Source: a virus (lineage: Duplodnaviria; Caudoviricetes). Taken from it: DNA of 61,969 bases. Below the pieces are notes generated by a model, which was not told the DNA's origin, searched no databases, and saw only the letters and a program-made list of their open reading frames with translations. The translations under genes and the position numbers were made by a program. The stretch covers positions 1-61,969 of IMG/VR virus record IMGVR_UViG_3300015242_000003. One strand, 5' to 3'. Below, in pieces: positions 1 to 61,969 of the stretch; position 1 is the stretch's first letter, and each line of letters opens with the position of its first letter.

Positions 1-77
1 GTCGCTCATGTCCGCTCCCGCTGTTCAGTTGGTGTAGCACCAGCCTACTCCTCAGATCTGCATTTGGCAAGTCTGGA
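1..77. repeat. 77-bp terminal direct repeat (copy at 61893-61969), indicating a circular assembly
   Basis: Exact match of bases 1-77 and 61893-61969; 77 is a common assembler k-mer size. Confidence 0.95.
42..70 (-). promoter_or_regulatory. Conserved phage promoter TTGCCA-N17-TAGGCT driving the leftward ORF at 61743-61901
   Basis: Minus strand reads TTGCCA aatgcagatctgaggag TAGGCT gg; one of six matching copies. Confidence 0.8.
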
Positions 78-28282: not shown

Positions 28283-28311
28283 TTGCCAATCTGGAGGAAG
28301 TCGAGTAGGCT
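28283..28311 (+). promoter_or_regulatory. promoter TTGCCA-N17-TAGGCT
   Basis: Matches the repeated consensus. Confidence 0.8.
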
Positions 28312-28420
28312 GGTGTTCGGTCTCAGGCCCGGAGAGACCAGAAAACCCAGACCCGGGCATCGCTGGCCGGCCCTACTGACAATCGGCGGCAGTAGGGTCG
28401 GTCCGGTTACGGAGGAAGCC

Positions 28421-29055: not shown

Positions 29056-29361
29056 ATGCCACGTAGGAAGATCGCTCCGCTACAGGAAGCAGGGGAAATT
29101 GAAGTGGTTGACTACCCAATCCATGACGACGTGCAACTGACGATCTCGGAGGTGTTCGACGTCGCCGAACTTGCCGACCTCGCGCACGCATGGGCACGGG
29201 AGGGCGCGGGGATGTCCCCGGAGCGAATCGACCGGTACCACGTGCTCGCGAAGATGTTCTCTGTCGAGCCGGCTCTCCTGCTCTACGTCTGCCAGCGGAA
29301 GCTTGCCGAGCTGCCAGATGGGCTACCGACCAGCGAAGATGGGGTGAGCGACAACTCCTGA
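29056..29361 (+). CDS. hypothetical protein
   Basis: GGAGGA RBS. Confidence 0.6.
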   Translation: MPRRKIAPLQEAGEIEVVDYPIHDDVQLTISEVFDVAELADLAHAWAREGAGMSPERIDRYHVLAKMFSVEPALLLYVCQRKLAELPDGLPTSEDGVSDNS

Positions 29362-29370
29362 AAGAAGTAG

Positions 29371-29399
29371 TTGCCAACTTCTGGCGATTGCCGTAGACT
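29371..29399 (+). promoter_or_regulatory. promoter TTGCCA-N17-TAGACT
   Basis: Matches the repeated consensus. Confidence 0.8.
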
Positions 29400-29432
29400 G
29401 GTGTCACACCAGGAAGCGACCAAGGAGCGGAC

Positions 29433-29633
29433 ATGACGCAGACCTTCCCTTACATCCCGGCCGGCACGAAGGTCATGTTCACCTCCAACACCGACGACAA
29501 GGTTCGGGAGGGTGTTATCGAGGGGATTAACCGGCGGACCGCGAACGAGTTTTCAGCTCCGACGTCCTACACGGTGCACAACTCGCGTGGCCAGTGGCAC
29601 GTGTCTGCCGACGAGGTTCTTCCGATCGACTAG
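29433..29633 (+). CDS. small SH3-like beta-barrel protein
   Basis: AAGGAG RBS; GTKVMF...GVIEG...YTV pattern. Confidence 0.6.
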   Translation: MTQTFPYIPAGTKVMFTSNTDDKVREGVIEGINRRTANEFSAPTSYTVHNSRGQWHVSADEVLPID

Positions 29634-29697
29634 GCCGAAACGCCCGAGGGGAGACCCGAGGGCGTCGCGGGGATCGAGACCCGCCTGAGGATGGCCT
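29632..29697 (+). ncRNA. type II hammerhead ribozyme
   Basis: AGGCC-GAAA-CGCCC...GGGCG-TC-GCGGG...CCCGC-CTGAGGA-T-GGCCT: full catalytic core and three stems; predicted cleavage after C29666. Confidence 0.85.
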
Positions 29698-29721
29698 CAG
29701 CTCTACCGAAGGGTGCAACCC

Positions 29722-29997
29722 ATGCCGAACGAACTTACGGTCTCGCAGCTCGTTGCCGAACTTCGCGAGCACCACGACAACGGAGCGCTTCCGGCCGGCT
29801 GGTCGAAGCTGCGCAAGGCCGAGCTGCTTGAGCTGCTCGAGGCGTTGCGCGTCTCGGCTCGTCGGGCGCCGAAGGCCTCGAAGGAGCGTCGCCTGCGCGA
29901 GAAGGGCTCCCGCGTCGGCCGTCGGTTCGGCACGAAGAACCGGGCGAACCGGCAGGACCCGAGGAACGTTCACCACAAGGTCCCCTCGGCGGCCTAG
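29722..29997 (+). CDS. basic protein with a Rho N-terminal-like (HEH) domain
   Basis: LTVSQLVAELRE...GWSKLRKAELLELL. Confidence 0.6.
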   Translation: MPNELTVSQLVAELREHHDNGALPAGWSKLRKAELLELLEALRVSARRAPKASKERRLREKGSRVGRRFGTKNRANRQDPRNVHHKVPSAA

Positions 29998-30085: not shown

Positions 30086-30415
30086 ATGAAGATCCGAAAC
30101 GCTTTCGTCGCCCTGCTCTCCCTCGCCTTCGTTGCGACTGCGGTGCCCGCCGTTGCGGCTTCCTCAGCTTCGACCACGACCCACTACGAGTACCCCTCCG
30201 ACGTGCAGGCCGCTCGCAAGGTGTGCTTCCGGGCGGAGCGCGAGGCTCGAGACATCCCGGGCGGCGACCAGGAGTACATCGCCTGGTGGAATGCGAACGA
30301 GGGCACCGTTGCCCAGCTCGACTGGACCGCCGCGTTCGACGCCTGCAAGGACGCGAACGAGGTCGCGGGTGCGAAGTGGTCCGCTGAGTGGTACTCGAAC
30401 TTGGTTCGCAAGTGA
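30086..30415 (+). CDS. secreted hypothetical protein
   Basis: Signal peptide MKIRNAFVALLSLAFVATAVPAVA; one Cys pair. Confidence 0.7.
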   Translation: MKIRNAFVALLSLAFVATAVPAVAASSASTTTHYEYPSDVQAARKVCFRAEREARDIPGGDQEYIAWWNANEGTVAQLDWTAAFDACKDANEVAGAKWSAEWYSNLVRK

Positions 30416-31552: not shown

Positions 31553-32497
31553 ATGAAGCGATTCGCACTAGCTTTAGCAGCGTTGCTGCTGGGGTTCTTC
31601 GGGGTATTCGCGGGCACAGCTTCGGCCCAAGAGCCGGCCGTTGCATCGGCATGTGCGCCTGGTTGGGTGGCGACTTACGAAACAGATGTAGTCGCCAGGG
31701 AGGATGACAGCCCGAGTCACGGGGTCTGGGCAACGGATGCGTTCCATCGTCAGTCGATCGTGTATTGCAATGAGAATGGGACTTTCAGCCTGGAGTTGAT
31801 TGACTCGGGTGAATTCACGGCTACCAAGTCGCCAGTTACAGGTGCCGCTATCACGGCGACCGGGGATTTCTCTGGGGGAGCGAAGTTCGTTGTCACCAGC
31901 GAGGAGTCTCCAGTCAACAATACGTCGGTAGGCGCGGATGGATCGAAGAGTTCCCAGGACTGGGCGAAGCTTATTTTCCCGAATAGCACCCACGAAACAA
32001 GTCATTGGGGCTGGACATATTCCACCAATTGCGAGAGCTACTCGCAGGTAAATTCGGTTTACACAGGTGACATCACAGGCAAAGTTTGCGAGACTCCGCC
32101 CGGGCCGGTCGACCCAGACCCCGTCGATCCGATCGACCCCGTTGTACCGGAACCGACCGATACTCTGAACTGTCCGGATTTCCAGTATCAGGAGGACGCC
32201 CAGGCCGAGCTGAACAAGGATGTCTCGGACCCGCACCAGCTTGACGGCGACTCGGATGGCGTGGCGTGTGAGAGTCTGCCGCATCGGCCGGTCGTCACCC
32301 CGGAACCGGTTGTGCCTGTCGATACAGATGGCGGTCTGACAAGTGGAAGTAGCAACAGTAACGATCCGCAGGATCTGGCCTACACGGGCACCGATGGCTC
32401 GAGTGTAGGCTGGATGCTCGGGATCGGCGCAGGCTCCCTGCTGGCGGGTGTCGGCCTGGTGCTGTGGCGACGCAAGACCAACAAGGACGTGCTCTAG
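31553..32497 (+). CDS. sortase-anchored surface protein with an Excalibur-like Ca-binding domain
   Basis: Signal peptide; LNCPDF...[11 protein letters not shown]; LAYTG motif followed by a TM segment and WRRK tail. Confidence 0.85.
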
Positions 32498-32526: not shown

Positions 32527-32555
32527 TTGCCAAGTTTAAGGAACTCGGGTAGACT
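32527..32555 (+). promoter_or_regulatory. promoter TTGCCA-N17-TAGACT
   Basis: Matches the repeated consensus. Confidence 0.8.
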
Positions 32556-32593
32556 GGCGCAGGCCAGAGCGGAACGACGAAGGGTTCAACCCG

Positions 32594-36490: not shown

Positions 36491-36519
36491 TTGCCAATTT
36501 CTCCAAGTTGGAGTAGGCT
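36491..36519 (+). promoter_or_regulatory. promoter TTGCCA-N17-TAGGCT with an internal palindrome CTCCAA-G-TTGGAG
   Basis: Matches the repeated consensus; lies upstream of the helicase gene. Confidence 0.8.
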
Positions 36520-36550
36520 GGCGGCCGAGTGAAGTTCTGAGGGAGGCGAC

Positions 36551-51832: not shown

Positions 51833-52219
51833 ATGAATATTTATATCTCAGGTGCGATACACGGCAAGGCGAAGCGGGGTGAAGATCCGTTCCGGCAAGC
51901 CGAGGAGCTGCTTGGTAGCCTCGGGCATGTCGGGATCGTGCCGCACGACATCGAGCCCTGGGCACACGAGGGCGACTGCCCGCCTGCGTACAGCGGGGCC
52001 GAACACTCGGCAGCCTGCTACATGCGCGGGGACCTCCTCAAGATGCTGGGGTGTGATGCGATACTCATGATCGGCGAGTGGCACCATAGCGTGGGTGCCC
52101 AGCGCGAGCACAGCGTGGCCTGCTGGACCGGCATGACGATCTTCTATCGGGCCTCAGAGATCCCAGACGCGCGAGACCTTGCCAAATTTGAGGCATTGCC
52201 GTACACTGGCGGTCTCTAG
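51833..52219 (+). CDS. DUF4406 / nucleoside 2-deoxyribosyltransferase-like protein
   Basis: IYISGAI...CDAILMIGEWHHSVGAQRE. Confidence 0.8.
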   Translation: MNIYISGAIHGKAKRGEDPFRQAEELLGSLGHVGIVPHDIEPWAHEGDCPPAYSGAEHSAACYMRGDLLKMLGCDAILMIGEWHHSVGAQREHSVACWTGMTIFYRASEIPDARDLAKFEALPYTGGL

Positions 52220-61274: not shown

Positions 61275-61280
61275 AACGCC

Positions 61281-61309
61281 AGTCTACTGGTTGGTCTGGA
61301 GTTTGGCAA
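61281..61309 (-). promoter_or_regulatory. promoter TTGCCA-N17-TAGACT
   Basis: Matches the repeated consensus. Confidence 0.8.
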
Positions 61310-61901: not shown

Positions 61902-61969
61902 GTCCGCTCCCGCTGTTCAGTTGGTGTAGCACCAGCCTACTCCTCAGATCTGCATTTGGCAAGTCTGGA

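Follow-up and report, generated by a model that had tools for sequence, protein, structure and literature searches.

The hammerhead locus

The stretch of DNA analysed here (the window) is the complete 61,969-bp virus record IMGVR_UViG_3300015242_000003, which has direct terminal repeats and belongs to an uncultured phage from soil. All the large open reading frames (ORFs) of the window are on the + strand. Between the lysis genes and the replication genes, 3' of a tail-fibre-like gene, an amidase and a holin-like membrane protein and 5' of an SNF2 helicase gene, a short RNA element is directly flanked by small ORFs without known family (66 and 91 aa). This element is a genuine, complete hammerhead of type II topology, and its sequence predicts self-cleavage. 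We consider it likely that it is a functional ribozyme which cuts a polycistronic mRNA, driven by a host promoter, just after the 66-aa gene. The features of the locus are collected in Table 1.

Table 1. Coordinates of the hammerhead, its parts and the features discussed in the text
Feature	Position	Strand	Remarks
Whole conserved hammerhead unit	29630-29698	+	includes the invariant C-U before and C after stem II
Stem II, 5' strand AGGCC	29632-29636	+	pairs with GGCCU at 29693-29697; holds the AG of the upstream stop
Core G12 A13 A14 A15.1 (GAAA)	29637-29640	+	invariant in the sub-family alignment
Stem III hairpin	29640-29665	+	A29640-U29665 (A15.1-U16.1), CGCCC/GGGCG, tandem G-A, GGG/CCC, GAGA loop
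Predicted cleavage site	29666/29667	+	GUC triplet; after C17 = C29666, leaving G29667 with 5'-OH; from hammerhead numbering
Stem I hairpin	29667-29684	+	GCGGG 29667-71 / CCCGC 29680-84; 8-nt loop GAUCGAGA at 29672-29679
Core C3-A9 CUGAGGA and inserted U	29685-29691 and U29692	+	direct reading
Anti-core CCUCAG	29695-29700	+	complementary to core CUGAGG 29685-29690; rival hairpin
Upstream 66-aa ORF	29433-29633	+	AAGGAG (ribosome binding site) at 29422-27; stop TAG 29631-33 overlaps stem II
Downstream 91-aa ORF	29722-29997	+	start ATG 29722; GAAGGG 29708-13 is the likely ribosome binding site
Block absent from L322	29420-29702	+	AAGGAG, 66-aa ORF, ribozyme and 4 bases; clean indel, conserved flanks
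Promoter-like motif TTGCCAA-N16-GTAGACTGG	29371-29401	+	upstream of the 66-aa ORF
Motif copies	28283-28313, 29371-29401, 32527-32557, 36491-36521, 52179-52209	+	
Motif copies	61279-61309, 61932-61962, 40-70	-	two in the terminal repeat

Structure of the element

Read in the 5' to 3' direction, the element consists of the 5' strand of stem II, GAAA, the stem III hairpin, the GUC triplet, the stem I hairpin, CUGAGGA and the 3' strand of stem II. Stem II is open while stems I and III are capped by loops, which is the type II topology. The bases that define the hammerhead class (C3 U4 G5 A6 N7 G8 A9, G12 A13 A14, the pair A15.1-U16.1 and H17) are all found. The pair G10.1-C11.1 is present as well (G29693-C29636), but U29692 is inserted between A9 and this pair. 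Within stem III the tandem G-A is formed by GA 29646-47 opposite GA 29658-59, and the GAGA loop occupies 29651-54. The core, stem, loop and triplet elements are all located where an earlier note, made from the letters alone, had placed them. Comparison with relatives makes the conserved unit 3 nt longer than the 29632-29697 of that note. The overlap of the upstream stop codon with the hammerhead and the distance of 55 nt from the predicted cut (C29666/G29667) to the next start were also correctly described there.

The minimum free energy (MFE) fold of the 66 nt at 29632-29697 is the hammerhead three-way junction (-36 kcal/mol, z = -3.1). We have searched both strands of the window with a descriptor of hammerhead types I, II and III (stems of at least 3 bp and 0-1 extra nt after A9), and this site alone was found, with stems of 5/5/5 bp. 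Over 300 dinucleotide shuffles of the whole window, the descriptor matched once at stems of at least 3 bp and never at stems of at least 4 or at least 5. Extrapolated from these figures, stems of 5/5/5 would arise by chance at a rate of roughly 1e-5 per window, and, since such a rate matters over a very large scan, comparative evidence was sought. Neither the Rfam scans, nor the descriptor, nor the covariance model described below revealed a second hammerhead or another ribozyme in the window.

A sub-family of phage type II hammerheads

In order to collect relatives, we have searched the contigs of IMG/VR with two patterns. The first, GAAACGCCC...GGGCGTC...CTGANGA, carries the CGCCC/GGGCG stem III and appeared in at least 117 contigs. 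Among the matches listed there were 133 sites, nearly all of them type II hammerheads as judged by eye and about half with a U after CUGANGA; GAAACGCCC...GGGCGUC is the commonest stem III sequence of phage type II hammerheads. In the second pattern only GAAAC, GTC, CTGANGA and an 8-nt loop RANNGWGA were fixed, without any constraint on the stems. This gave 36 sites in 35 contigs, with a perfect 5-bp stem I at 25 of them; the 11 sites with 1-4 stem I pairs were discarded as chance, and the 25 were parsed together with the window as 26 members of a sub-family.

Positions 1-4 of stem II are paired in all 26 members, with GC, AU, CG, UA and GU pairs, and positions 3-5 of stem III covary. C17 is a C throughout (26/26). 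The consensus of loop I is RAUCGAGA. The C-U directly before stem II and the C directly after it, which were absent from the search patterns, are invariant in the 26 members. The extra U, which the earlier note had singled out, is there, yet it is the rule rather than an oddity: an insert after A9 is found in 20 of the 26 members (U in 17, UU in 2, G in 1) and is missing from 6. All 20 members with an insert have a 5-bp stem II and all 6 members without it a 4-bp stem II. This link between insert and stem length and the invariant CU...C suggest a tertiary contact with loop I that would measure length. The window has all the features of the sub-family, i.e. the 5-bp stem I, the RANNGWGA loop and the CU and C around a stem II of 4-5 bp.

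A covariance model (R1), built from 8 members on other contigs with the window excluded, gives the window 73.6 bits (E ~1e-17) over 29630-29698, against 12.8 bits for the next best match in the window, a score that is partly circular in the core and loop parts, as the sub-family had been collected with the window's own core and loop motifs. Over 66 sources R1 found 51 matches at E<=0.001. In the alignment of these 51 sequences, which was fitted to R1 and agrees with the independent parse of the 26, standard pairs fill 98.8% of the pair cells, vs 70% in shuffled sequences and 31-49% with slid partners. Both sides change at 13 of the 16 pairs (covariation score 0.63 vs 0.16). Covariation is present in all three helices, and stem I shows double changes at all 5 pairs.

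The window and two other genomes, G001 and G002, have one R1 match each. The complete record G001 (65.6 kb) shares synteny with the window along most of its length, and its proteins are 28-60% identical to those of the window. Its single ribozyme copy is located in the same module and the TAG of the upstream ORF overlaps stem II exactly as in the window. The ribozyme is identical at 50/59 positions between the two phages, compared with 24/60 in the flank on its 5' side and 16/27 in that on its 3' side. The pair C29635-G29694 is replaced by U-A in G001, a compensatory change, and stem III lacks its apical extension there, owing to a 10-nt indel at the tip. In G002 stem I and its loop are nearly identical, with no protein similarity nearby. 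The R1 score, the covariation and the conservation in the distant but syntenic G001 taken together bear out the earlier identification of a type II hammerhead.

Among genomes (one per species), 12 of 121 pattern matches have the full architecture of the sub-family, mostly in Pseudonocardiaceae. By record titles, these members include 2 in Saccharopolyspora, 3 on 2 contigs of Amycolatopsis, 2 in metagenome-assembled genomes (MAGs) of Pseudonocardiaceae, 1 in a MAG of Solirubrobacterales, and L288. Two more full members (L202 and L205) are on contigs labelled as Candidatus Melainabacteria MAGs, outside the otherwise actinobacterial distribution; they may be phage contigs binned with the wrong genome. 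In several other phage contigs R1 matches follow successive genes close together, with 8 in L132, 3 in L177 and 2 each in L163, L165, L169, L174, L140 and L141.

Points that weigh against a functional hammerhead

Besides the partial circularity of the R1 score, several observations speak against the reading of the element as a functional hammerhead. A search with a hammerhead type II model, proposed in the earlier note as a check, did not come out in favor: in the Rfam search of 351 nt, the best match to RF02276 (Hammerhead_II) reaches 19.8 bits (per-genome E = 0.005), vs a gathering cut-off of 37 bits, and the Rfam scan of the whole window gives no family at gathering score and nothing at E<=1. 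Rfam alone would not support a hammerhead call. The pseudoknot between loop I and the 3' tail, described in passages of the 2011 study as critical for fast cleavage of type II hammerheads (PMC3088659), is absent, since the longest Watson-Crick run in the window is 3 bp. Folded in an 88-nt context, the core would prefer the anti-core of Table 1, the rival hairpin having a probability of 0.67 vs 0.065 for stem II, in an energy model that ignores tertiary contacts and Mg2+. There is no R1 match in L322, a much closer relative than G001 (80-90% protein identity, ~80% DNA identity), so that the ribozyme is dispensable, nor in L323, which has the same identity as L322 to a 109-aa query protein. Among five cultured relatives chosen by portal similarity (Nocardia phage P3.1, Gordonia phages Suzy, LuckyLeo and Patos, and Micrococcus phage Kurnik) no credible R1 match was found (0/5), the best reaching 12.9 bits.

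The low Rfam score is common to the sub-family. Its members L032 and L113 score 26.8 and 26.7 bits with RF02276, and no Rfam match at gathering level was obtained in 12 loci that hold sub-family members. Canonical phage type II loci used as a control (n=8) gave 15 RF02276 matches at 38-78 bits. The published consensus of type II hammerheads has the pseudoknot in the majority, not in all (PMC3088659). Within the sub-family, the run between loop I and the 3' tail is at least 4 bp long in 5/26 members and 5 bp long in 0/26, vs 79/125 and 40/125 of other phage type II sites. Loop I (GAUCG) might also pair with CGAUC at 29623-27, on the 5' side of the element, but this was rejected: other members do not preserve the complement, and the match rests on palindromic sequence (GAUC/UCGA), as judged by eye.

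An alternative would be a hammerhead-like sequence that arose by chance, or another structured RNA such as a terminator or protein-binding hairpins, without self-cleavage. The Rfam score is below threshold, the same RF02276 search gives, at E<=10, sub-threshold matches in 11 of 14 control genomes, none over the cut-off, and the element is missing from the closest relative. Chance origin is nevertheless hard to reconcile with the shuffles, none of 300 having stems of at least 4 bp, with the 73.6 bits of R1 and the covariation in all three helices, or with an element conserved in G001 amid diverged flanks. An intrinsic terminator was rejected, as no U-run follows the hairpins and there is no terminator-like site at the locus. 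We regard a chance sequence or another structured RNA as very improbable indeed.

The rival hairpin

The rival fold of the 88-nt context is predicted to be 1.4 kcal/mol more stable than the hammerhead fold (-37.9 vs -36.5 kcal/mol), and its CUGAGG/CCUCAG hairpin is present both in the MFE fold of 211 nt and in the fold of the 3' product. An anti-core of at least 5 bp is found in 8 of the 26 members vs 5.7% of shuffles, and one of at least 6 bp in 5/26 vs 1.1%. Among a further 128 distinct type II sites of phages, the corresponding numbers are 21 (vs 5.5%) and 15 (vs 0.7%), many of these anti-core-bearing sites looking interrelated and being largely one set. Possible effects of the anti-core are slower cleavage, cleavage that depends on conditions, or a locked product after the cut.

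One possible consequence is that of a weak or regulated ribozyme, in which either this hairpin or ribosomes stopping at the TAG within stem II leave most transcripts uncut, cleavage then depending on upstream translation or on conditions. The stability of the hairpin and the enrichment of long anti-cores both here and in other phage type II sites point in this direction and, judging from the coordinates, a ribosome at the stop codon would cover stem II. However, 18 of the 26 members have no anti-core of at least 5 bp, so the sub-family is not defined by it; the sites with an anti-core among the 128 derive largely from one related set; and the energy model leaves out the tertiary contacts and Mg2+. 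We find this account quite unlikely.

A separate observation concerns a group of short type II hammerheads that end in CUGACGA-GGCC-GUCAG (for instance L015, L042, L054, L073, L082, L086, L101, L104, L111 and L118). Their tail exactly complements the core and would form a core-burying hairpin as in the window.

Coupling to the end of the upstream gene

In the 26 members, a stop that closes a frame of at least 66 codons is always located within 30 nt 5' of GAAA, vs 13% of random positions. In 15 of the 26 it lies at most 8 nt 5' of GAAA and overlaps stem II, vs 3.5% of random positions. The invariant U and the first two purines of stem II make UAG, UGA or UAA in 18 of the 26 members and in 15 of these this is the stop of the upstream frame. 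The TAG at 29631-33 of the window is made in this way. Among the 26 members, the next start follows the ribozyme at anything between 8 and 119 nt, and one member has no start in range. Since the distance to the stop is tight while that to the next start varies, the ribozyme is tied to the end of the preceding gene.

The block missing from L322 comprises the upstream ORF with its AAGGAG and the ribozyme, and the region directly to its left (29359-29419, with the promoter-like motif) is 95% identical between the two phages. The leader of the 91-aa ORF, CTACCGAAGGGTGCAACCCATG, is kept in L322. In G001 the ribozyme follows a 61-aa ORF unrelated to the 66-aa ORF and directly precedes a homologue of ORF 30086-30415. 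These differences can be read as the traces of a mobile cassette of a small ORF and a ribozyme, the latter being its 3' end module. Its main role would be insulation: once the cassette has landed within an operon, the cut would separate the resident downstream gene from the inserted ORF and give it back a short leader whose ribosome binding site is accessible, and the anti-core would lock the cleaved state. This would refine the picture of a functional hammerhead rather than replace it. Such a cassette is consistent with the clean indel, with the different ORF in G001, with the stop overlapping stem II while the next start lies 8-119 nt away, and with the copies found after successive genes elsewhere (such as the 8 matches of L132); passages of the 2011 study also note hammerheads beside single genes of varying identity (PMC3088659). 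It has to be set against these that there is a single presence/absence pair, which a deletion in L322 would explain equally well, that searches of viral and metagenome contigs gave no further copy of the 66-aa ORF, and that no insertion scars were identified. We see the cassette as a real possibility, although on balance we doubt it.

Proposed course of cleavage

If the element is, as we favor, a functional hammerhead, it would be transcribed as part of a rightward polycistronic mRNA, probably from the motif at 29371-29401 and by the host polymerase. Once the 3' strand of stem II has been made, the three-way junction would fold and the RNA would cut itself after C29666. The 5' product would contain the complete 66-aa ORF and its stop, 33 nt before the end, and would finish in the G-C-rich stem III hairpin with a 2',3'-cyclic phosphate. 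Because the ORF and its stop codon stay intact in this product, no non-stop message would be generated. The 3' product would begin at G29667 with a 5'-OH and with the stem I hairpin at its very end, followed by a 55-nt leader, the 91-aa ORF and whatever genes come after it. In this way the small gene on the 5' side would be uncoupled by the cut from the resident genes on the 3' side. Two publications have proposed that such ribozymes process long transcripts of phages (PMC3088659; PMC6765202).

The earlier note had expected a downstream mRNA with 5'-OH and altered stability. The 5'-OH would follow from hammerhead chemistry, and a change in stability could go in either direction. In one version, the cut lowers downstream expression, with the 5'-OH as a degradation signal in hosts that have RNase J, as for glmS in Bacillus. 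Collins and co-workers are said to have described in 2007 that RNase J1 degrades the 5'-OH product of glmS. The probable host of the phage is an actinobacterium and the genome copies of the sub-family are mostly in Pseudonocardiaceae, which would fit. On the other hand, the first nucleotide of the 3' product already belongs to a 5-bp G-C hairpin, so that a single-stranded 5' overhang is lacking, and a 5'-terminal hairpin without overhang hinders nucleases that depend on the 5' end. A lowered expression seems to us rather improbable, to about the same degree as a regulated ribozyme.

Relation to known systems

The element shares with the type II hammerheads of Perreault 2011 (PMC3088659; RF02276) the catalytic core, the topology, the CGCCC/GGGCG stem III, the setting among co-directional phage genes and the proposed role in cutting transcripts. 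Unlike them, it has no loop I pseudoknot and has instead a 5-bp stem I with an 8-nt RAUCGAGA loop and a stem II of 4-5 bp within CU...C. The sub-family as a whole differs from the published type II by its usual inserted U after A9 and by reaching only 19.8-26.8 bits with RF02276. This variant or the inserted U may already be present in the alignments published in 2011. That phages have hammerheads has been known since that year, and their role there was still open according to a 2019 review (PMC6765202). A literature search found no paper linking hammerheads to actinophages.

The element is new as a member, not as a kind, being a hammerhead of the known type II. The added interest comes from a sub-family that is invisible to Rfam and has its own peripheral elements, from an ORF and ribozyme block that differs between relatives, from the built-in stop and from the anti-core. 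This is a well-populated sub-group that goes unreported at the Rfam threshold (26 members parsed, 51 model matches, copies in Saccharopolyspora and Amycolatopsis), and, because it falls below the curated threshold, counts of phage ribozymes based on Rfam are underestimates.

Three other systems are relevant for comparison. The natural (+) hammerhead of chrysanthemum chlorotic mottle viroid, which De la Pena and Flores reportedly found active in 2001 with an extra nucleotide between A9 and G10.1, is of type III and has an A as its extra base. RiboJ-type insulators place a hammerhead-type ribozyme before the ribosome binding site, where it removes the upstream RNA and leaves a constant leader. 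They are engineered, whereas the arrangement described here is natural, the insulation being suggested by the L322 indel alone. Finally, glmS of Gram-positive bacteria also cuts in the mRNA leader, to give a 5'-OH downstream product whose fate sets expression, as outlined in the review (PMC6765202). Its fold is unrelated, it depends on a cofactor and it serves one gene, while here there is no sign of a ligand. The phages themselves offer a natural comparison, in which close phages with and without the small ORF and ribozyme have the same promoter-like element before them and a distant relative keeps the ribozyme after a different ORF.

A broader scenario would have this lineage, which comprises actinophage and actinobacterial type II hammerheads, swap the pseudoknot for a docking of RAUCGAGA on the invariant CU...C that bounds stem II, helix length being tuned by the inserted U. 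It would spread as the 3' end of small-gene cassettes, its own U-purine-purine serving as the stop, with the cut insulating the recipient operon and the anti-core locking the cleaved state in some members. As a whole we consider this scenario conjectural and somewhat more doubtful than the cassette alone.

The flanking genes, the host and other features of the window

The 66-aa ORF appears to be coding, with a GC content at third codon positions (GC3) of 0.82, similar to other genes. It has no match in Pfam or PHROG and no relative among viral contigs or metagenome contigs. The 91-aa ORF has a basic tail and faint hints of HeH/SAP domains, all below threshold (E 0.07-0.11); it may encode a small nucleic-acid-binding protein. 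Its relative in L322 is 59% identical, and a search with it gave one weak partial match, in L002, without a ribozyme. In GenBank phages nothing was retrieved by blastn or megablast with the locus or by tblastn with the 91-aa ORF, and blastn with the 69 nt of the element (E<=10) gave only short matches, with E of at least 2, within coding genes. Searches with the 109-aa protein retrieved only G001 and the L322-type phage.

The portal protein of the window is at most 45% identical to the portals of Nocardia, Gordonia, Mycobacterium and Microbacterium phages. Because the portal of Nocardia phage P3.1 reaches 45% identity and all 161 of the 161 GenBank records that match the portal are actinophages, the host is probably an actinobacterium. 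Among sequencing runs, none of RNA was listed for the stretch, which speaks neither for nor against cleavage; the one run listed is of soil metagenome DNA and may be the source of this sequence.

The motif TTGCCAA-N16-GTAGRCTGG occurs in 8 copies in the window at no more than 1 mismatch, vs 0.07 per shuffle. The copies on the + strand fit a series of host-type promoters in the non-structural arm. The hammerhead is ~230 nt 3' of the copy at 29371-29401. This distance and the location between the lysis and replication genes make the early operon of the earlier note plausible, with sequence context as the basis of that assignment. In the case of ORF 28283, the TTG predicted as the start coincides with the first hexamer of another copy and, since it lies within the motif, this ORF probably starts later.

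Further downstream, a 314-aa protein is encoded at 31553-32497 (+). It has a hydrophobic, signal-like segment at the N terminus and, at the C terminus, LAYTG followed by a hydrophobic stretch and RRK. An Excalibur calcium-binding domain scores 21.8 bits in it, just under the Pfam cut-off of 22. We take this protein to resemble a phage-encoded, sortase-anchored surface protein of a Gram-positive host.

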